Source of the DNA: a phage
Length of the DNA: 35,772 nt
Reading direction: 5' to 3' (one strand)
Assembly: GCA_019566835.1 (NCBI GenBank)
Contig: GCA_019566835.1_3045.2
Shown here one piece after another: positions 90 through 33,247 of the stretch. A program made the position numbers and the translations under genes. The notes beneath the pieces are model-generated. The model ran no database searches. It saw nothing but the letters and a program-made list of their open reading frames with translations, and was not told the origin of the DNA. The first letter of the stretch is position 1, and every line of letters starts with the position of its first letter.

Positions 90-3000
90 ATGGCTACTTT
101 AAAACAAATACAATTTAAAAGAAGCAAAACCGCAGGCGCGCGTCCTGCTGCTTCAGTATTAGCCGAAGGTGAATTGGCTATAAACTTAAAAGATAGAACA
201 ATTTTTACTAAAGATGATTCAGGAAATATCATTGACTTGAGCATTTCCACTGGCGGCAATATCAGTGGAAATATCACTCAAACTGGTGATTATTTACAAA
301 ACGGCACGTATAATCTTAATGGAAACCAGTTTGTTTATGCAGGAAAATACATTGAATTTTTACCTAAAACCGCTGGTAATGGTGCGTGGGCAAATCAACA
401 CCTCAATAAAGCTCCTATCTTTACAGATTTAAGTTCAACTACTTCTGTTTCAGAATATCATCCACTCATTAAGCAGCGTTATAAAGATGGGACTTTTTCT
501 GTTGGTACGTTAGTAAACGAAGGAAGTTTTAAAATTCATTATATTAATGAATCGGGAACTTCAAAATATTGGACATTTCGTAGAGATGGTGGATTTGTTG
601 TTGATACAGGAAGTTTGACAGTAACAGATGGAAATATTTCTGCCTCTGGTAATATTAATTCAGCTACTGGGGTAGTTTCTGCTCCGCAGATTAATACAAA
701 GACTATAGTTTTTGATACAAAAGCGTTCGGACAATATGATTCGCAGTCATTAGTTCAATATGTTTATCCTGGAACAGGTGAAGCAAACGGAATCAATTAC
801 CTTCGCAAATTCCGTGCTAAATCTGGTGGTACAATTTATCATGAATTAGCTTCTGCGCAAACCGGAAAAAGTGATGAACTTTCTTGGTGGACTGGTAATA
901 CAGCGGTTAATAAACAAATGGGCCTTCGCAATGATGGGTCTTTAGTACTACGACGTTCACTTGCAATTGGTACAATTACAACAGATGAAAACATCAATAA
1001 CTACGGTTCCACTGGAGCAATGGGCGAATGTTATATAGTTATTGGTGATGCATCAACAGGTTTATCATACAAAAAAACTGGGGTATATGACTTAGTTGCT
1101 AGTGGTCTTTCTGTAGCATCTATTACTCCTGATAGTTTCCGTAGTACGCGCAAAGCGATTTTTGGACGCTCGGAAGACCAAGGCGGTACGTGGCTTCTTC
1201 CTGGTCAAAACTCATCTCTTCTTTCAGTTCGTACTGAAGCTGACCAAAACAATAATGGAGATGGTCAGACACATATTGGCTATAATAGTAATGGTAAATT
1301 TTATCATTATTTTAGAGGCAGAGGAAGAATGGCCATTGGAATGGCCGAAGGACTTATTGTTGAACCAGGAATTTTAGATATTAAAACTGGTTCAAATACA
1401 TTAAGTTTGCGTGCTGATGGTACCGTCGCTTCTGTTCAAACATTAAAGCTTAATAATGGATTATATTTTAATAGCGATGGAACTAACGCTTCTCTAATTT
1501 TTAAAGCAGCTTCAGGTATTGATGGTACTAAACAAATACTTTGGGAAGGTGGTACTCGTGCTGGGCAGAATAAGAGCTATGTAACTGCTAAAGCTTGGGG
1601 AAATTCATTTAATTCATCTGGCGATCGTAATCGTGAAACGGTTTTTGAAGTATCAGATGGACAAGGATATTATTTTTATGCTCAACGCGTAGCTCCTGCA
1701 CCAGGTTCAACAACTGGTGCAGTTCAATTTAGAGTTGCCGGAGCATTATTAACTTCTGGCGGTATTACATCATCTGGTTCTATTGTTACTGAATCTAGCT
1801 TAGTTGCAAATAATGGATTATCTGTAAATGGACAAGCTAAATTTGGTGGAACAGCAAATGCATTAAGAATTTGGAATGCCGAATATGGCGCCATATTCCG
1901 TCGCTCAGAAACAGCATTGCACATTATTCCTACTCTTAAAGACCAAGGAGAAAATGGTGAAATAGGTAATCTTCGTCCATTGAGCATCTCACTTAACAAC
2001 GGTATGGTTCAAATGCGCCATTCTGTCACGTTAGGTGATGATGGTGCAGGCGGTAATATGGTGACGGTTGATAATGATTCTAAAGTTATAGTAATGACGA
2101 CTAATAGCCGTATTAGTCCTAACTTCCGTATGCAAATTGGACAGTCGTCTTATATTGATGTGGAATGTACTGATGCTGTGAGACCTGCTGGAGCCGGTTC
2201 TTTTGCTTCACAGAATAACGAAAACGTTCGCGCTCCGTTCTATATGAATATTGATAGAACAGATACAAGCACTTATGTTCCTATTGTGAAACAAAGATAC
2301 GTGCAAAATAATAGTTGCTATTCTATTGGTACTTTAATTAATGGTGGTAACTTTAGAGTTCATTATCATGAAGGTGGCGATGGCGGTTCTACAGGCGCAA
2401 TTATAAAAGATTTAGGATGGGAATTTAATAAAAACGGTGATTTTTATTCTCCTGGTAAATTAGGCGCTGGAAATATTAGAATAGGTACTGATGGTAATAT
2501 CACGGGTGGTTCTGGTAACTTTGCTAACTTGAATACAACTTTAAACCGTAAAGTTAATTCTGGTTTTATTACTTATGGAGCAACGGCAGGTTGGTACAAG
2601 TTTGCAACAGTAACAATGCCTCAAGCTACATCAACTGTTTCAATTACAGTCACCGGTGGAAATGGATTTAATTCTGGGTCATTTAATCAGTGTGCAATTT
2701 CTGAAATTGTTCTTCGTACAGGAAACAATACTCCTAAAGGATTAAATGCTGTTCTATATAGAAGAGGACTAAATTCATTTAGAGATATTGCTTGGGTTAA
2801 TACATCTGGTGATACATATGACATTTATGTTAATATGGGAACATATGCTAATCAGTTGATATTTAACTATAGTTCTGTTGATAACGCCACAGTTCAAATT
2901 ATTGGCGCATTCAGCTCAGCTCAAAATCCTGTTGATGCATTGCCAGAAACATATGTTAAAGGTCAGGTAGCAGATGTATTGACTAACTTAGTTGATTCTG

Positions 3001-3953
3001 GAAAAACGAAGCGTTTTGTTGCTGAATCTGAAATAGCTGTTAATAATCAAACTGGATTACGTATTACGAGTAACGGTGATAAATCTGGTTCAAATTCAGT
3101 ATTATTCAGAAATGATGGCGGTAGTTTTTATATTCTTTTAACAGATAAAAACGCAGCAGATGGAAATACGACTGCTACAGAAGGAGATTGGAATGGTAAA
3201 CGTCCTTTCCAAATTAATATGACTTCTGGTGAAGTAACATTTGGAAATAATATTAATATTTCTGGAAACGGAAGCATTAATTGGACAAAAGCCGGAGCAA
3301 ACCCTAGAAATATGAGAATATTTCATGCAGGTGATGCTTCTCGTGGTAACCGTATTGAAATCGCAGATGATACTAACTATATTGCTTACTTTGAAAAAAC
3401 TCCAGGTGGAGCTAACCGCTTTGTAGTAAATAATGCTACTGTAGCTGGTGTTAATCAAATGAATTCATTTGGTATTAACATCAATAACGCGCTTGGTGGA
3501 AATAGTATAACATTTGGTGATAGCGATACTGGTATTAAGCAAAATGGCGATGGATTATTAGACATATATGCGAACAACGTACAAGTATTCCGTTTCCAAA
3601 ACGGTGATTTGTACTCATACAAAAATATAAATGCTCCAAACGTTTATATTCGTTCTGATATTCGTTTAAAATCCAACTTCAAACCTATCGAAAATGCGCT
3701 TGATAAAGTTGAAAAACTTAACGGTGTCATTTACGATAAAGCTGAATATATCGGTGGAGAGGCAATTGAAACTGAAGCGGGTATTGTGGCTCAAACGTTA
3801 CAAGACGTTTTACCAGAAGCTGTCCGTGAAACAGAAGACAGTAAGGGTAATAAAATACTCACTGTTTCTTCTCAAGCCCAGATTGCTCTTCTGGTTGAAG
3901 CTGTGAAAACACTTTCTGCTCGTGTAAAAGAACTTGAATCTAAACTTATGTAA
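90..3953 (+). CDS. 37: Long tail fibre distal subunit gp37, T2-type with C-terminal intramolecular chaperone module
   Basis: 1287-aa ORF. N-terminus MATLKQIQFKRSK...LAEGELAINLKDRTIFTKDDSGNIIDL and internal blocks NAEYGAIFRRSE, AECTDAVRPAGAGSFASQNNE and KQRYVQ match the gp37 signature I recall from T4. Last ~99 aa (SDIRLKSNF...GVIYD...) resemble a self-cleaving fibre chaperone domain. Confidence 0.93.
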   Translation: MATLKQIQFKRSKTAGARPAASVLAEGELAINLKDRTIFTKDDSGNIIDLSISTGGNISGNITQTGDYLQNGTYNLNGNQFVYAGKYIEFLPKTAGNGAWANQHLNKAPIFTDLSSTTSVSEYHPLIKQRYKDGTFSVGTLVNEGSFKIHYINESGTSKYWTFRRDGGFVVDTGSLTVTDGNISASGNINSATGVVSAPQINTKTIVFDTKAFGQYDSQSLVQYVYPGTGEANGINYLRKFRAKSGGTIYHELASAQTGKSDELSWWTGNTAVNKQMGLRNDGSLVLRRSLAIGTITTDENINNYGSTGAMGECYIVIGDASTGLSYKKTGVYDLVASGLSVASITPDSFRSTRKAIFGRSEDQGGTWLLPGQNSSLLSVRTEADQNNNGDGQTHIGYNSNGKFYHYFRGRGRMAIGMAEGLIVEPGILDIKTGSNTLSLRADGTVASVQTLKLNNGLYFNSDGTNASLIFKAASGIDGTKQILWEGGTRAGQNKSYVTAKAWGNSFNSSGDRNRETVFEVSDGQGYYFYAQRVAPAPGSTTGAVQFRVAGALLTSGGITSSGSIVTESSLVANNGLSVNGQAKFGGTANALRIWNAEYGAIFRRSETALHIIPTLKDQGENGEIGNLRPLSISLNNGMVQMRHSVTLGDDGAGGNMVTVDNDSKVIVMTTNSRISPNFRMQIGQSSYIDVECTDAVRPAGAGSFASQNNENVRAPFYMNIDRTDTSTYVPIVKQRYVQNNSCYSIGTLINGGNFRVHYHEGGDGGSTGAIIKDLGWEFNKNGDFYSPGKLGAGNIRIGTDGNITGGSGNFANLNTTLNRKVNSGFITYGATAGWYKFATVTMPQATSTVSITVTGGNGFNSGSFNQCAISEIVLRTGNNTPKGLNAVLYRRGLNSFRDIAWVNTSGDTYDIYVNMGTYANQLIFNYSSVDNATVQIIGAFSSAQNPVDALPETYVKGQVADVLTNLVDSGKTKRFVAESEIAVNNQTGLRITSNGDKSGSNSVLFRNDGGSFYILLTDKNAADGNTTATEGDWNGKRPFQINMTSGEVTFGNNINISGNGSINWTKAGANPRNMRIFHAGDASRGNRIEIADDTNYIAYFEKTPGGANRFVVNNATVAGVNQMNSFGININNALGGNSITFGDSDTGIKQNGDGLLDIYANNVQVFRFQNGDLYSYKNINAPNVYIRSDIRLKSNFKPIENALDKVEKLNGVIYDKAEYIGGEAIETEAGIVAQTLQDVLPEAVRETEDSKGNKILTVSSQAQIALLVEAVKTLSARVKELESKLM

Positions 3954-3954
3954 A

Positions 3955-3972
3955 AGAGGGCTTCGGCCCTCT
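3955..3972 (+). promoter_or_regulatory. C(UUCG)G tetraloop stem-loop in the 37-38 intergenic spacer
   Basis: AGAGGGC-TTCG-GCCCTCT gives a 7-bp stem with a UUCG loop, immediately after the gene 37 stop and before the gene 38 SD. No clean U-tract follows. Confidence 0.45.
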
Positions 3973-3983
3973 AAGGATTTTTA

Positions 3984-4661
3984 ATGGCAATTGTAGGTGT
4001 TCCTGGCTGGATTGGTGAATCTGCCGTGAATGAAACTGGACAACGCTGGATGGATGCTGCAATGAAAGCAGTTCGCGTTTCAGTTCCTGGCTGGATGAGT
4101 TCAATGGCTGGACAATCTAAAGAAGTATATTATAGTGTTGGTGCTAGTAATTCTTATAATAAAGACACACTAATAAATTGGATAAAAGCTCAAGGCAGTA
4201 CTCCTGTTGTTATTACTATTACAGGAAATATTGTTTCTCAATCTACTGGTGTTCCATGCTTAGATTTTCCTAGCTCATTAACTAATGCGTATGTTACCTT
4301 AAATATTAATAGCGGGGTTCATGTATTAGGTCGGGGAGGAAATGGCGGAAGTAACTCTGCTGGTGGAGCAGGAGGAACTGCAATAAATAACGGAATTGGA
4401 ACTCGTTTAAGAATAAACAATAACGGTATTATTGGTGGCGGTGGCGGTGGCGGCGCTGGTGCTAGATACCATCCTTTCCCTCAAATGGATATGATATTTG
4501 GTGGCGGCGGAGGTCGTCCATTTGGCGCTGCTGGCAAATCTTCATATATTCAAGGTGGTACTGGAGGAACTGTTCACTCGGGTGGTGCTGCGGGTAAAGC
4601 TGTTACTGGTAATGCTCCAACTTGGACTAAAGTTGGTACAATATACGGTTCAAGAGTATAA
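3984..4661 (+). CDS. 38: gp38 tail-fibre adhesin, glycine-rich-motif type
   Basis: 225-aa ORF directly downstream of gene 37 with SD AAGGA. C-terminal half holds several glycine-rich motifs (GRGGNGGSNSAGGAGG, GGGGGGGAGA, GGGGGRPFGAAG, GGTGGT, GGAAG) typical of T2/T6-type gp38 adhesins. Confidence 0.8.
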   Translation: MAIVGVPGWIGESAVNETGQRWMDAAMKAVRVSVPGWMSSMAGQSKEVYYSVGASNSYNKDTLINWIKAQGSTPVVITITGNIVSQSTGVPCLDFPSSLTNAYVTLNINSGVHVLGRGGNGGSNSAGGAGGTAINNGIGTRLRINNNGIIGGGGGGGAGARYHPFPQMDMIFGGGGGRPFGAAGKSSYIQGGTGGTVHSGGAAGKAVTGNAPTWTKVGTIYGSRV

Positions 4662-4668
4662 TTTTTGA

Positions 4669-4678
4669 ATAAATATCC
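4669..4678 (+). promoter_or_regulatory. Possible late promoter for t (imperfect TATAAATA)
   Basis: GAATAAATAT lies about 20 nt upstream of the holin start; it matches the T4 late -10 consensus except at the first position. Confidence 0.25.
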
Positions 4679-4693
4679 TTAAAAGGAGGGTCT

Positions 4694-5350
4694 ATGGCAG
4701 CACCTAGAATATCATTTTCGCCCTCTGATATTCTATTTGGTGTTCTAGATCGCTTGTTCAAAGATAACGCTACCGGGAAAGTTCTTGCTTCCCGGGTAGC
4801 TGTCGTAATTCTTTTATTTATGATGGCGATTGTTTGGTATAGGGGAGATAGTTTCTTTGAGTACTATAAGCAATCAAAGTATGAAACATACAGTGAAATT
4901 ATTGAAAAGGAAAGAAATGCACGCTTTGAATCTGTCGCCCTGGAACAACTCCAGATAGTTCATATATCATCTGAGGCAGACTTTAGTGCGGTGTATTCTT
5001 TCCGCCCTAAAAACTTAAACTATTTTGTTGATATTATAGCATACGAAGGAAGATTACCTTCGACAATAACAGAAAAATCACTTGGAGGATATCCTGTTGA
5101 TAAAACTATGGATGAATATACAGTTCATTTAAATGGACGTCATTATTATTCCGATTCAAAATTTGCTTTTTTACCAACTAAAAAGCCTACTCCCGAAATA
5201 AACTACATGTACAGTTGTCCATATTTTAATTTGGATAATATCTATGCTGGAACGATAACCATGTACTGGTATAGAAATGATCATATAAGTAATGACCGCC
5301 TTGAATCAATATGTGCTCAGGCGGCCAGAATATTAGGAAGGGCTAAATAA
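4694..5350 (+). CDS. t: Holin T
   Basis: 218-aa ORF with strong SD AAGGAGGG. Sequence MAAPRISFSPSDILFGVLDRLFKDN... with one transmembrane segment and a large periplasmic domain matches T4 holin as I recall it, same length. Confidence 0.96.
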   Translation: MAAPRISFSPSDILFGVLDRLFKDNATGKVLASRVAVVILLFMMAIVWYRGDSFFEYYKQSKYETYSEIIEKERNARFESVALEQLQIVHISSEADFSAVYSFRPKNLNYFVDIIAYEGRLPSTITEKSLGGYPVDKTMDEYTVHLNGRHYYSDSKFAFLPTKKPTPEINYMYSCPYFNLDNIYAGTITMYWYRNDHISNDRLESICAQAARILGRAK

Positions 5351-5623
5351 TTATTTGTTCGTATACATCTCTAGATATCGATATACACCCTCAAAACCCT
5401 CGTTGAATTCGTCGATGAGGGTTTTCTTATCTTCTTGAGTTAATTCAGAAACAATTTTACGGAATGAATTCTGATTTAATTTTCTACCTTCATGCGTTAC
5501 TCCAATCTCATTCAGAAATGCAATAAAATTAGCACGATTCTCAACAATATCTTCTCTGGAAAATTTAATCAAAATAGACGCAACAGTAATAATTTCACGA
5601 ACTGTATCAATGTTTTTATTCAT
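5351..5623 (-). CDS. asiA: Anti-sigma-70 factor AsiA
   Basis: 90-aa ORF, MNKNIDTVREIITVASILIKFSREDIVENRANFIAFLNEIGVTHEGRKL..., convergent with t; length and sequence match T4 AsiA. Confidence 0.95.
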   Translation of the reverse strand: MNKNIDTVREIITVASILIKFSREDIVENRANFIAFLNEIGVTHEGRKLNQNSFRKIVSELTQEDKKTLIDEFNEGFEGVYRYLEMYTNK

Positions 5624-5635
5624 TAACTATACCAC

Positions 5636-5788
5636 TCAATTAGTTGACTTTGCTATAATATCATCAGACGCTTGATTTGTAAACTGGTCTGTGGTATTTT
5701 CTTCAAAAATTTTTTCTACGAATTCCTTGAACGACTCGCGTTCCTGAGCTACATTATGCTCGATTACCTTTTCAAGATTATGACTCAT
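5636..5788 (-). CDS. Small acidic ORF (50 aa) between arn and asiA
   Basis: ATG overlaps the arn stop (ATGA). Its 3' half contains the asiA early promoter, so coding status is uncertain. Confidence 0.3.
   Translation of the reverse strand: MSHNLEKVIEHNVAQERESFKEFVEKIFEENTTDQFTNQASDDIIAKSTN
5655..5684 (-). promoter_or_regulatory. T4-type early promoter upstream of asiA
   Basis: Minus strand reads GTTTAC, 18-nt spacer, TATTAT, with an AT-rich upstream region. Confidence 0.6.
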
Positions 5789-16202: not shown

Positions 16203-16232
16203 ATTATACCACATCCTTGTGGTAAAGTAAAC
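16203..16232 (-). promoter_or_regulatory. T4-type early promoter for the rIIA.1-rIIA-rIIB unit
   Basis: Minus strand reads GTTTAC, 18 nt, GTGG-TATAAT; the -35 element overlaps the gene 39 stop codon. Confidence 0.65.
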
Positions 16233-18049
16233 TACTGGCTCATCCATTCTTTACGAAGGTCAGCATTATCTCCCATGAGCATTTCAAAAAGCTCTTTCCA
16301 GTTCTCAGGAAGTTTAACAACATCATATACTGGATTTTGAATCATTTCACGATATTCAGATTTTTCCAAAGAGCCAAGTCCTTTAATATAACGGATGCTA
16401 TGTTTAGGTAGAGCATCTTTGGCACTCTCATATTCAGCGACTGTATAAAACCATTCTTGTTTTTTACCGACCTGAGCGATGATTACAGGAGTTTTGACAA
16501 AGCGAATTCGTCCTTGCTCAAACAATTCTGGCCAATTACTAAAAAATCCGAGCAGAGAAGGATAAATGCTTCCTAGACCATCATGGTCAGCATCAGTCAT
16601 AATAGCAATATTGCGATAATTCATGTTTTCAGCTTTTTCACCAAGAACTAATCCAGTGATTGCGCAAATATCAAATAGTTCTTTGTTTTTAAGCATATCT
16701 GCATAAGACATACCCCAACTGTTGAGAACTTTACCACGCAATGGATAACCACCATGAAGTTCTTTATCACGAACATCAATAAGATATCCGATAGCAGAAT
16801 CACCCTCAGTCAAGAAAAGAGTAGTATCAGCATCTTTACCGCACAGATTAGCTTTAATATGTTTATGAACCTTTGCCTTAGAAGCCTTTTTAGCTGCTTT
16901 AGTTTCAGCTGCTTTTTCTGCTGCCAATTTACGAGCTAGTGCAGCTTCAATAATTGGCATTAAAATTGCTTCATTATTTAAAATAGCGCGTGAAATCTTT
17001 TTAGCGTCAAGTTGAATATGACTACGGATTTCACCAAATGGAGAAGTCAAACGCTCTTTAGTTTGAGAATCAAATCGCATGTTTTTCATATCACGAACAA
17101 ACATAACGATAGTCAAACATTCTTTAACGCGTGCTTTAGTTACATCAATTTTGAACTTACGTTTGATTTGTGGAATAAGGTCTTCACAAATATCATCCAT
17201 AACACAGTCAATGTGATGGCCACCATTCTTAGTATGAATGTTATTGACGTATGTTAATTGACGAAATCCATCCGGTGAACGACCAACCGCAATAGAACAA
17301 TTTTCTTGTTCTTGAACAATAGCATGTTCATCATACTGTAGTGCATATTTCTTAAAATTGCCCTGAACCTTTTTACCATTAAAGGTAAATTGAATATCAG
17401 GATAAACAACAGCAAGTGTCTGGAGACGATCTAGTGTAATGTCAAGATAAACTTGGGACAGCTCATTAGTTTCAAATGACATAAAATCTGGAATGAAAGT
17501 AACACGAGTTCCTTTCCATTTTCCAGGAATAGTTTCCCAGGATTTATTTTCCATGCCATTTGAACAACGAACTACAATATTATTTTGACCATCGCCAGTT
17601 TCACCGACAAACATCACAGAAAAAATGTTAGTTAAACTAGAACCAACACCATTCATACCACCGGTGACACGTTCTTTATCATCACCAAAGTTACCACCCG
17701 CTTTTGGAATAGTCCAAGCAGCAACTGGACCAGGAATTTCTTCACCGGTAGGTGTTTTAACCATCGCTTGTGGAATACCACGACCGTTATCTTCAACTGT
17801 TACTTGATTGTTTTTAATAGTAACATTAATTTTATTTGCGAATTTAAACTTAGTACGAATACCTTCATCTACTGAGTTATCGATAATTTCATCAATAAGC
17901 TTAACAAGACCAGGTACATACTGAACACTTTCCCATTTACCAAACAGAAAGCGCTCATGCATTTCATTAGCAGAAGAGCCAATGTACATGCCACTACGCT
18001 TTTTGATATGTTCAATATCGCTCAGAATTTTAATTTCATTCTTAATCAT
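16232..18049 (-). CDS. 39: DNA topoisomerase II large subunit (GyrB-like) gp39, uninterrupted
   Basis: 605 aa from the ATG at 18049 (SD GAGGATAAG; the ORF-track start at 18052 is GTG). N-terminal GHKL ATPase motifs (DEIIDNSVDEG, EDNGRGIP) and a C-terminal Toprim-like region sit in one frame. Confidence 0.92.
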   Translation of the reverse strand: MIKNEIKILSDIEHIKKRSGMYIGSSANEMHERFLFGKWESVQYVPGLVKLIDEIIDNSVDEGIRTKFKFANKINVTIKNNQVTVEDNGRGIPQAMVKTPTGEEIPGPVAAWTIPKAGGNFGDDKERVTGGMNGVGSSLTNIFSVMFVGETGDGQNNIVVRCSNGMENKSWETIPGKWKGTRVTFIPDFMSFETNELSQVYLDITLDRLQTLAVVYPDIQFTFNGKKVQGNFKKYALQYDEHAIVQEQENCSIAVGRSPDGFRQLTYVNNIHTKNGGHHIDCVMDDICEDLIPQIKRKFKIDVTKARVKECLTIVMFVRDMKNMRFDSQTKERLTSPFGEIRSHIQLDAKKISRAILNNEAILMPIIEAALARKLAAEKAAETKAAKKASKAKVHKHIKANLCGKDADTTLFLTEGDSAIGYLIDVRDKELHGGYPLRGKVLNSWGMSYADMLKNKELFDICAITGLVLGEKAENMNYRNIAIMTDADHDGLGSIYPSLLGFFSNWPELFEQGRIRFVKTPVIIAQVGKKQEWFYTVAEYESAKDALPKHSIRYIKGLGSLEKSEYREMIQNPVYDVVKLPENWKELFEMLMGDNADLRKEWMSQ

Positions 18050-18076
18050 CACTTATCCTCGTTTGGTTTCGGGAAT

Positions 18077-18101
18077 ATTATACTCCGGTAATCATAAAGC
18101 T
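18077..18101 (-). promoter_or_regulatory. Middle-type promoter upstream of gene 39
   Basis: Minus strand reads TTTAGCTTTA, 12 nt, TATAAT; one mismatch to the MotA box TGCTTtA. Confidence 0.4.
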
Positions 18102-18119
18102 AAAGGCCCGAAGGCCTTT
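18102..18119 (-). terminator. C(UUCG)G tetraloop hairpin terminator
   Basis: AAAGGCC-UUCG-GGCCUUU overlaps the stop of the lipoprotein gene. Confidence 0.45.
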
Positions 18120-18388
18120 TATTTAAAACGAATAGTTGAATCCTTAAAGAACAGCCCAGAACATACTGTTCCTTCTACTTTCTGCCCGGTAGGTCCAATA
18201 GCACGAAATCCAGTATGTTGGAAATCATTTTCAGAGCAACCGAACCAGTTATATCCAGTGATTTCAATATTCGTAAAACCACTTGATGATAAAATTTTAG
18301 TTGCATTATCAGCATCAGTACATCCTACTAAAGATACTGCTAATACTAATGCTGCGATAGAACGATTAATATATTTCATAATTTTCAC
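18119..18388 (-). CDS. Putative lipoprotein (89 aa)
   Basis: N-terminal signal peptide ending in lipobox LVGC (SIAALVLAVSLVGC). Confidence 0.65.
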   Translation of the reverse strand: MKIMKYINRSIAALVLAVSLVGCTDADNATKILSSSGFTNIEITGYNWFGCSENDFQHTGFRAIGPTGQKVEGTVCSGLFFKDSTIRFK

Positions 18389-18756
18389 TTAAATTTAATA
18401 GCTTGAAGAAGACTAATAATTCTCAAGCGACTTCTTTCATCTTTAACTGTAAAGGAAAGAGGGTCGCCAGATTTCATGGTAATAGTGCATTCAAAATCAA
18501 AATCTTCTGTGACTTCTTCGAAGAAGTCAAATTCTTCAGCATAAATTAGAACATTACTCTGAAAACTGTGAAGAATTTTTCCGTTATTTCCAGACGCTGT
18601 ACTAATCATCGTAACATTATGACCTTTCATATCTTCAACGATAAATTCGCTTGTAGATATTACAGCATTAATAGAACCATTCCTATAAATAGCAGACATT
18701 AGATATTTCTTTTCTTCGCCTTCGCGAATACGATATTTCTTACCGATTTTAAACAT
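18385..18756 (-). CDS. Hypothetical protein (123 aa)
   Basis: ORF with SD AAAGGA; ATGA overlap with the downstream gene. Confidence 0.65.
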   Translation of the reverse strand: MFKIGKKYRIREGEEKKYLMSAIYRNGSINAVISTSEFIVEDMKGHNVTMISTASGNNGKILHSFQSNVLIYAEEFDFFEEVTEDFDFECTITMKSGDPLSFTVKDERSRLRIISLLQAIKFK

Positions 18757-19968: not shown

Positions 19969-20388
19969 TTATGCTAAAGCTGCTTCGCACCATTTTTTAA
20001 TTTGGAATTCAGGAACTACCATGAACTGGCCTGCAAAAACAATATTGTAGAGCTTGACACCATCTTCTACCCAACGGTCCGAAATAAAACCAGCGACTTG
20101 ATTCGTTGTCCATGGAGTTCCATCTGTTGCCGCCGCAATTGTGAATTTATGGTCTTTTACAACTAAAACTGAAGAACAAAGTTTCCATTTAAATGCGCTT
20201 TCTTCTGGCTCAATGAACTGACTTGAGACATAACCAATGTTACCATCAGCGTCACGAACTTTAACCTCGTTACGACCAAAAACTGGATCACTTACAGAAA
20301 GAACTTCAACCAGCTTTCCTGCAACTTTAGAACGAGAAGCAACGGATACATATACGTAATCACCAGTAGAGAGATTTGCAATATTCAT
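19969..20388 (-). CDS. Hypothetical protein, paralog family member A (139 aa)
   Basis: SD AAGGA. Shares the N-terminal SRSK-AG-LVEV block and the C-terminal GF-TD-W-EDG-KLYNIVF module with the next gene. Confidence 0.7.
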   Translation of the reverse strand: MNIANLSTGDYVYVSVASRSKVAGKLVEVLSVSDPVFGRNEVKVRDADGNIGYVSSQFIEPEESAFKWKLCSSVLVVKDHKFTIAAATDGTPWTTNQVAGFISDRWVEDGVKLYNIVFAGQFMVVPEFQIKKWCEAALA

Positions 20389-20397
20389 AATAATTCC

Positions 20398-20871
20398 TTA
20401 AGCTTTACGAGGAGAAGCATAACGAGTGATTTCAGATTCTTCAACAACCCGGAAGTCACCTAAGAATACGATATTGTAGAGCTTTTCACCATCTTCAACC
20501 CATTGGTCTGTGATGAAGCCACACATCCTATCAGTTTTACTTGGACCAGCGAAATCATCAATATAATCGAATTCTTCATCAGTTACAAATTCAACGCCTT
20601 TACACAACGCCCATTTAAATTGTGTATTAGACTCAGTGGATTCAACTTCTTCAACAGAAGCAAAATGAGAGCTAACACGAGTTTCCAGAAATTTAGGACT
20701 TACGTAAGCGTACTGAGTTTCAGTTTTTCCAGAACCAGGAATGATTCGAACTTTAACTTCTTTAACACGACCAGTACCATTAGTACGAAGTCCTACCACT
20801 TCAACTAGACGACCTGCAGCTTTAGAACGAGATGCAGACGATACACGCTTAATTTCACCGATAGTAATCAT
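20398..20871 (-). CDS. Hypothetical protein, paralog family member B (157 aa)
   Basis: Start taken at MITIGEIKRV, because the longer in-frame ATG lies inside the upstream promoter. Same conserved N- and C-terminal blocks as member A. Confidence 0.7.
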   Translation of the reverse strand: MITIGEIKRVSSASRSKAAGRLVEVVGLRTNGTGRVKEVKVRIIPGSGKTETQYAYVSPKFLETRVSSHFASVEEVESTESNTQFKWALCKGVEFVTDEEFDYIDDFAGPSKTDRMCGFITDQWVEDGEKLYNIVFLGDFRVVEESEITRYASPRKA

Positions 20872-20914
20872 AATTTTTCTCTCTTTGTTGTTAAGATTTA
20901 TACTCCGCAGGACC

Positions 20915-20944
20915 ATTATACTCTGGTCCCAAGAGTTTGTAAAC
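20915..20944 (-). promoter_or_regulatory. T4-type early promoter
   Basis: Minus strand reads GTTTAC, 18 nt, TATAAT, with a second GAGTATAAAT about 20 nt downstream. Confidence 0.55.
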
Positions 20945-21381
20945 TAGCTTACACGAACATTAATCACTGCGCTGCGAGGAACTACAGAGTACTCTCCAGC
21001 ATGAACTACGTTCAGAAGTTCAACACCATCTTCAATCCACTGATCAGTCACCCATCCACCCACAGGATTCGCGAATGGACGACGAATATAAACTGCCTTA
21101 CACAGCAGATCAGTTGGATCTTCAGGTTTTTCAATTTCTGTCAATAGACTAAAATCTTTTTCATAAATAATAAGCGGTGATACCATTCCATAATAGTTTC
21201 TAATTTCAATATACATCATACCGATAAGAATTCCGCTATTAACACTAATAACAGTAAAAGGATATCCGCCAGTTAAACCAAGAAGTTCACAAAACTTATT
21301 ATGAGCTGTATTAGACAGTACCGAAAAATTCTTAATTTCATCAAATTTTTTCAATTGATAAACAGCATTATTTTTAATCAT
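20944..21381 (-). CDS. Hypothetical protein, paralog family member C (145 aa)
   Basis: C-terminal GWVTDQWIEDGVELLNVVHAGEYSVVP matches the shared module of members A and B; the N-terminus is unrelated. Confidence 0.7.
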   Translation of the reverse strand: MIKNNAVYQLKKFDEIKNFSVLSNTAHNKFCELLGLTGGYPFTVISVNSGILIGMMYIEIRNYYGMVSPLIIYEKDFSLLTEIEKPEDPTDLLCKAVYIRRPFANPVGGWVTDQWIEDGVELLNVVHAGEYSVVPRSAVINVRVS

Positions 21382-32953: not shown

Positions 32954-33247
32954 TTATTCGCCTGTGATTTCGGTTACGATATTTTTGTTATTAAAGTTTT
33001 TATCGCAATACAGAACATAATTATACTGCATTACACCACCAGACTTAAGTTGTTTTTGCACTTCAGCTTTCATTTCAGGACGATCGCGCTCAACGATATT
33101 CATAATATCCGCTTCAATTTGAGTTTCAACTTCAGTCTGATCTGCAGTCATAGACCATTCACACAAATCTTTATCATATCCTGCCATAGCAGGCTGAGTA
33201 GCACAAGAAGCCAAAGTAAAAATTGTAGCAAAAATAAATTTTTTCAT
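32954..33247 (-). CDS. sp: Spackle periplasmic protein Sp
   Basis: 97-aa ORF with a cleavable signal peptide (MKKFIFATIFTLASCATQPAMA); T4 sp size and 61.3 position; SD GAGGAG. Confidence 0.7.
   Translation of the reverse strand: MKKFIFATIFTLASCATQPAMAGYDKDLCEWSMTADQTEVETQIEADIMNIVERDRPEMKAEVQKQLKSGGVMQYNYVLYCDKNFNNKNIVTEITGE

Follow-up and report, generated by a model that had tools for sequence, protein, structure and literature searches.

The minus-strand reading frame described here is, by position and sequence, the orthologue of T4 gene 39.1 (UniProt Q01435, T4p007), and its product, gp39.1, is almost certainly a lipid-anchored protein that faces the space between the two membranes of the host. 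The window, meaning the whole analysed stretch of 35,772 nucleotides of phage DNA, is from a Tequatrovirus. Escherichia phage teqsoen matches the 2 kb around the gene at 99% identity, and hundreds of Tequatrovirus genomes do so at more than 90%. The best overall explanation is that gp39.1 is a T4 39.1 orthologue that acts as a periplasmic lipoprotein and binds or neutralises a conserved partner; this reading is given an even chance. An earlier note on this DNA called the product a phage-encoded lipoprotein, and that description is well supported by the lipobox, the conserved cysteine, the residue at position +2, and the co-varying cysteines. The lipoprotein observation is not new, as the gene has been catalogued and a few GenBank and UniRef entries already label gp39.1 "lipoprotein". 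No functional study of gp39.1 or of any family member was found in the literature.

Table 1. Positions of the features of the 39.1 locus, and of the Spackle orthologue, in the window.
Feature	Coordinates	Strand	Basis or remark
gp39.1 orthologue, most likely coding sequence	18119..18379	-	86 aa plus TAA stop at 18119..18121; ATG shared by orthologues, PHROG 902, dN/dS
In-frame GTG, start in the earlier note	18386..18388	-	upstream of the ATG; shares bases with the TGA (18385..18387) that ends the preceding 123-aa ORF
Predicted signal peptide, residues 1-19 (MKYINRSIAALVLAVSLVG)	18323..18379	-	K2/R6 n-region and hydrophobic core
Predicted lipobox L17-V18-G19-C20 (TTAGTAGGATGT)	18320..18331	-	regex match; Cys column conserved
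Predicted mature protein, residues 20-86 (67 residues)	18122..18322	-	AlphaFold2 model
Cys48 codon (TGC)	18236..18238	-	predicted disulfide partner, co-variation with Cys73
Cys73 codon (TGT)	18161..18163	-	predicted disulfide partner, co-variation with Cys48
Hairpin AAAGGCC-UUCG-GGCCUUU	18102..18119	-	begins at the last base of the stop codon; RNA fold
Spackle (gp61.3) orthologue	32954..33247	-	phrog_1586, E=9e-47

The ORF list of the window contains the minus-strand frame 18119..18388, and the 89 residues given for it in the earlier note are confirmed when the count starts at GTG. The ATG at 18379, three codons downstream of the GTG, is the start (MKYINRS...) in every orthologue, and T4 cannot use the GTG start, as it has an in-frame TAA right before this ATG. 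Because the ATG is common to all orthologues and is preceded by a TAA in T4, the real coding sequence is most likely the one in Table 1, with a product of 86 rather than 89 residues; the GTG is probably not a start. The length of the ORF is not decisive by itself, since about 7 stop-to-stop ORFs of 89 codons or more turn up per mononucleotide shuffle of the window (35% G+C), and since an antisense ORF of 136 aa overlaps the gene. This antisense frame (17982..18392, +) runs across the whole of 39.1, the hairpin, and the beginning of gene 39. The pattern of selection sits on the minus-strand frame, which makes the antisense frame almost certainly spurious. The reality of the gene follows instead from its conservation, which is seen in the PHROG 902 match, in the number of phage records and clusters that hold it, and in a low dN/dS.

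The match to PHROG 902 ("unknown function") covers residues 1-86 at E=6.2e-37, while searches of Pfam, NCBIfam, PADLOC, and PDB sequences gave no gp39.1 match beyond signal-peptide noise. By tblastn the protein is found in 1071 phage records. In a representative library clustered at 50% identity, a profile search matched 2223 clusters, of which 1103 had E<=1e-10. Comparisons among T-evens give a dN/dS of 0.02-0.09 in this frame, and those with other genera give 0.09-0.14 (once 0.21); by this measure gp39.1 is under strong purifying selection. Almost every T-even-type phage, therapeutic candidates included, carries a 39.1 gene that is strongly maintained.

The order of genes on the minus strand is cef, goF, 39.2 (zinc ribbon), a 123-aa ORF, 39.1, and gene 39 (topoisomerase II large subunit). 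The orthology with T4 39.1 rests on the same position between 39.2 and 39 and on 97.7% identity to the gp39.1 of re-sequenced T4. The same gene is annotated as 39.1 in T2 and T6, and the 39.2 - 39.1 - 39 synteny is shared by Tequatrovirus, Dhakavirus, Gaprivervirus, and Jiaodavirus. The conserved slot between 39.2 and gene 39 is held here as well, with the extra 123-aa ORF between 39.2 and 39.1. That ORF (18385..18756, -) belongs to phrog_622, of unknown function, and has a weakly goF-like N-terminus; it is missing from T4, and T2 has another ORF in its place. The spacing of 5 nt between its TGA stop and the ATG of 39.1 hints at translational coupling. Gene 39 (16232..18052, -) is a single ORF of 606 aa that has neither the T4-specific split into genes 39 and 60, nor the mobA insertion, nor the gene-60 bypass element. 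Three tandem paralogues with a MotB-like C-terminal motif (phrog_1671, phrog_2333) lie at 19969..20388, 20398..20916, and 20944..21381 (-), and by their sequences they are a locally expanded family in the early region.

Relatives of gp39.1 occur in phages of Klebsiella, Serratia, Aeromonas, Rhizobium, and Agrobacterium, and in jumbo phages. Gene 39.1 is taken here to be an accessory module that consists of one gene and belongs to large virulent phages, most of them contractile-tailed. Near its homologues in distant phages there is no conserved partner gene, and the contexts beyond Serratia phage phiMAM1 share nothing. In phiMAM1 (Ackermannviridae, 3959..5104) the homologue is immediately followed by a P22 gp17-like "superinfection exclusion" gene (PF17420) and a Lar-like gene for restriction alleviation; judged by gene content, these three genes are a small host-interaction island. 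No DNA match to 39.1 was found in 5,426 complete E. coli genomes. Outside phages, three plasmid matches to the family were found: a phage-like element of 117 kb that shares its gene order with a Rhizobium phage, a similarly sized Sinorhizobium record, and the accessory region of a Burkholderia megaplasmid.

The T4 reference record (NC_000866) annotates 39.1 as a protein of 65 aa with no signal peptide, as against 86 aa, and yet its DNA upstream of the annotated gene still reads MKYISRSIAALVLAVSLINSTDAD*. At 5570..5720 of NC_000866 a stretch of 151 nt is only 92% identical, with 2 indels, to every independently sequenced T4. This stretch is matched at 100% only by the legacy records AF158101/NC_000866, X06220, and M89919. 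Its frameshift and cluster of substitutions make gp39.2 shorter and deprive gp39.1 of its signal peptide and lipobox. In contrast, T4T, KJ477684-6, MT984581, OL964735, the OZ records, RB55, and RB59 encode the intact 86-aa protein that begins MKYINRSIAALVLAVSLIGC..., and the intact gene is present in at least 13 listed T4-type records. The frameshift, together with LINS in place of LVGC, might suggest that 39.1 has decayed in T4, but this view was dropped, since only the legacy records carry that sequence. The legacy stretch probably consists of old sequencing errors carried into the reference; the alternative is a stock-specific patch of mutations. It is the reason why PHROG-based tables list T4p007 as a "singleton", and why genome-wide screens built on the T4 reference, such as the CRISPRi-ART guides for 39.1, were aimed at the wrong sequence.

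The signal peptide and LVGC lipobox named in the earlier note hold up under a PROSITE PS51257-type rule: K2 and R6 lie within the first 7 residues, followed by ALVLAVSLVGC with the cysteine at position 20. The hydrophobic core is IAALVLAVSLV, with an 11-residue Kyte-Doolittle mean of up to 3.0. A lipobox was defined as [LVI][ASTVI][GAS]C closing the h-region, with the cysteine between residues 15 and 35. Cys20 is predicted to be the lipidated first residue of mature gp39.1. The lipobox cysteine is kept in 128 of the 143 aligned family representatives (90%), and LVGC, LSGC, and LAGC are the commonest lipoboxes of the family. About 10% of relatives have a plain signal peptide or a transmembrane anchor in place of the lipobox. 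In E. coli, lipoproteins that lack Asp at position +2 are sorted by Lol to the outer membrane. Position +2 is Thr here. The strict lipobox rule is passed by 152 of 196 sequences, and these have Thr at +2 in 116 cases, Ser in 19, and Asp in 1. Outer-membrane sorting is predicted from this +2 rule alone, and the very short tether could impair Lol trafficking. The regex also matches the Spackle protein of the same window, whose signal peptide reads MKKFIFATIFTLASC..., though Spackle is described as a soluble protein of 75 aa in its mature form. This match is either a false positive of the rule or a putative lipobox.

The AlphaFold2 model of gp39.1 (mean pLDDT 77.9; 77-93 over the mature part) consists of a 3-residue tether, a helix at 23-32, and strands at 36-43, 54-61, 67-74, and 82-85. 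The modelled fold is thus a compact one, in which one helix would pack on a four-stranded sheet. The mature part contains exactly the two further cysteines that had been pointed out before, at positions 48 and 73. Both are present in 133 of the 143 representatives, both are missing in 7, and only 3 have a single one. That they are kept or lost together indicates a disulfide and hence an oxidising compartment, the periplasm, so that this pattern points to a periplasmic Cys48-Cys73 disulfide. Across phages that infect gamma- or alpha-proteobacteria, five polar residues (D52, T56, K79, T82, and R84) are kept in 95% or more of the sequences. A Foldseek search of the PDB gave no significant structural relative of gp39.1, with T5 Llp and Cor included.

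Expression, which the earlier note had named as a point on which its reading could fail, is documented for the T4 orthologue with its 97.7% identity: the RNA of T4 39.1 is classed as early and the protein was detected by mass spectrometry (PMC9697503, supplementary files 4 and 6). The detected peptides are from the C-terminal part, which is common to the true and the mis-annotated protein. By orthology with T4, expression in this phage would be early too. A CRISPRi-ART knock-down of T4 39.1 was scored "Not Fit", with no fitness cost (PMC11879866). Going by T4, 39.1 may therefore be dispensable in the laboratory, though the evidence is weak, since the guides had been designed from the faulty part of the reference.

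The hairpin behind the gene is identical in T4, and one related record (H35) annotates a terminator there. RNA folding of 18070..18125 gives -14.9 kcal/mol (z = -2.1) for the hairpin and a second stem. A consensus terminator scan did not call it, owing to the short U-run. It is a putative terminator, or an RNA-stabilising stem, that would close the 39.1 transcription unit. Just past the hairpin, AGCTTTA (18095..18101, -) lies 12 nt upstream of TATAAT (18077..18082), again identically in T4. The segment 18077..18101 (-) is arranged like a MotA-dependent middle promoter of T4, which would presumably serve gene 39; a generic sigma-70 scan did not report this pair.

A precursor with a type II signal peptide, and a compact mature domain that is held by a Cys48-Cys73 disulfide and hence suited to the periplasm, are strongly supported for gp39.1. 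As proposed here, gp39.1 would then be processed by Lgt, LspA, and Lnt. Lol would pass it to the inner leaflet of the outer membrane, to judge by the Thr and the absence of Asp at +2. There it would sit almost flush with the membrane, as the tether has only about 3 residues. If it behaves like the T4 orthologue, it would be transcribed early and accumulate during infection. The final step, in which gp39.1 binds in a stoichiometric manner and neutralises a conserved partner accessible from the periplasm, and not the variable primary receptor, is tentative and well short of an even chance. A stoichiometric binder is suggested by the stand-alone gene, the early expression, the tiny rigid domain, the conserved polar residues, and the interchangeable anchors. 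Since about a tenth of the family uses an anchor other than the lipobox, the partner should be reachable from the periplasm and not embedded in the outer membrane. A conserved rather than a receptor-specific target is favoured because this phage, T2, T4, and T6 share 97.7-98.8% identity in gp39.1, which is as conserved there as the holin, whereas gp38 of the same four phages is only 12-61% identical (gp37 tips 16-68%).

Two versions of this proposal are ranked. The first is a Spackle-like block after adsorption, in which gp39.1 would act on a conserved part of the penetration apparatus of the incoming phage. The second is the inhibition of a conserved host periplasmic enzyme. The Spackle-like version is put first because of the Spackle precedent and because most of the identified carriers are large myoviruses. 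T4 Spackle (gp61.3) is a small, early, disulfide-containing periplasmic protein that binds a protein of the incoming phage (PMC7677548). This phage already has its own Spackle orthologue (Table 1). The exclusion phenotype of T4, which has an intact 39.1, is due to imm and sp, and a strong extra exclusion function in T4 would probably have been noticed. Both facts, the Spackle gene of this phage and the attribution of T4 exclusion to imm and sp, temper the idea, and superinfection exclusion by gp39.1 after adsorption is no more than a possibility.

In the likeliest of the rival explanations, gp39.1 would be tethered to the membrane and would inhibit a conserved periplasmic enzyme of the host (protease, peptidoglycan hydrolase, or nuclease), and in this way it would protect the infected envelope or components of the phage. 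An invariant polar patch that is kept across phages of very different hosts is in line with this, and so is the interchangeable type of anchor. However, the structural similarity is weak and generic, and the sequence matches no inhibitor family. Enzyme inhibition in this form is unlikely.

Receptor masking, one of the two roles offered in the earlier note, is disfavoured. In this role gp39.1 would be an exclusion lipoprotein of the T5 Llp/Cor type that binds the periplasmic face of an outer-membrane receptor and switches the receptor off. A small phage lipoprotein that is predicted on the inner side of the outer membrane, with a very short tether and with early expression as for Llp, would suit this role, and PHROG gives a weak Cor match (E=0.033). 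However, this match spans residues 8-29 only, with no homology in the mature domain. In the hhalign comparison of the gp39.1 family with T5 Llp, 18 columns were aligned, all of them in the signal peptide. The T5 llp gene abuts the receptor-binding gene oad, whereas 39.1 is an early-region gene, separated by about 13 kb from gp37/gp38 (90..4661) and not beside receptor-binding genes. T2, T4, and T6 use different outer-membrane receptors, and gp39.1 is near-identical in them and in this phage despite unrelated or divergent adhesins, so that its sequence does not track receptor specificity among these four. Members of the family also occur in phages of hosts as broad as Aeromonas, Rhizobium, and Serratia, and some have no lipid anchor. 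Finally, T-even-infected cells keep adsorbing superinfecting phage, which triggers lysis inhibition. Taken with these points, receptor masking is improbable. The adhesin genes of this phage encode a gp37 long tail fibre (1287 aa) followed by a T2-type, glycine-rich gp38 adhesin of 225 aa (+). This gp38 is 61% identical to that of T2, 51% identical to that of T6, and unrelated to that of T4, and its divergence makes a receptor specificity different from those of T2, T4, and T6 likely.

A role as the outer-membrane subunit of a spanin, or as another lysis component, is very improbable. It would agree with a small phage lipoprotein, and the phiMAM1 homologue lies a few genes from an Rz-like spanin. 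Against it, 39.1 has no adjacent or embedded gene for an inner-membrane spanin, its neighbours being the soluble 123-aa ORF, which has no hydrophobic segment, and the topoisomerase gene 39. The domain is folded and proline-poor, in contrast to the short unstructured o-spanins, and no spanin PHROG was matched. The RNA of T4 39.1 is early and not late like that of the lysis genes, which holds for this phage by orthology. T4-type phages also have spanins already, namely pseT.2 and pseT.3.

A functionless chance ORF or a decayed gene, for which the ORFs of similar length in shuffled windows and the shortened version in the T4 reference record might speak, is already refuted by the conservation and proteomics data, that is, by dN/dS of 0.02-0.14 in this frame, by the presence of the gene in 1071 phage records and 2223 clusters, by the detected T4 protein, and by the T4 shortening, which is seen only in the legacy record and in none of the re-sequenced T4 genomes.

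With the conserved-partner proposal as the preferred reading, a bolder extension makes gp39.1 a membrane-tethered periplasmic protein that neutralises a conserved component of incoming contractile-tail phages or of the host envelope, and thus the third envelope-level system, so far overlooked, in T-even and other large myoviruses. This is unlikely. If true, the system would have been missed for 60 years of T4 genetics, partly through the mis-annotation as a 65-aa cytoplasmic protein, and gp39.1 would represent a new class of phage periplasmic effector with more than 2000 clusters and a fold of its own. If gp39.1 conditions the envelope or excludes competitors, it would bear on interference between phages in cocktails and on the protection of infected cells.

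Compared with known systems, gp39.1 resembles T5 Llp and Cor as a small phage lipoprotein with one intramolecular disulfide and a predicted location on the inner leaflet of the outer membrane. Llp and Cor are expressed early or from prophages, and gp39.1 is early in T4. Unlike them, gp39.1 has a mature part with neither homology to theirs nor a fold match in the PDB, and its gene is unlinked to a receptor-binding gene and does not co-vary with receptor specificity. With the o-spanins lambda Rz1 and T4 PseT.3 it shares the features of a phage-encoded lipoprotein predicted in the outer membrane. It differs from them in lacking a partner i-spanin gene, in its folded domain, and in its early expression. 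Against the cystatin, PepSY, and VirB8-NTF2-like alpha+beta domains and the colicin M immunity protein Cmi, the gp39.1 structure scores in the range of generic folds; there is no sequence signal for any of them and no significant Foldseek match, and the model suggests a likeness of shape only. Like Spackle, gp39.1 is an early, small, exported, disulfide-containing accessory protein of T-even phages. In contrast, Spackle is all-helical and soluble, whereas gp39.1 is alpha+beta and lipid-anchored and has no sequence similarity to it. The gp39.1 family is also far more widespread, with 2223 clusters against 178 homologues of Spackle (PMC7677548). The family is unrelated to Llp, Cor, Spackle, and the spanins, and it is a real but ordinary finding, with a modest upside if gp39.1 is a widespread periplasmic effector.
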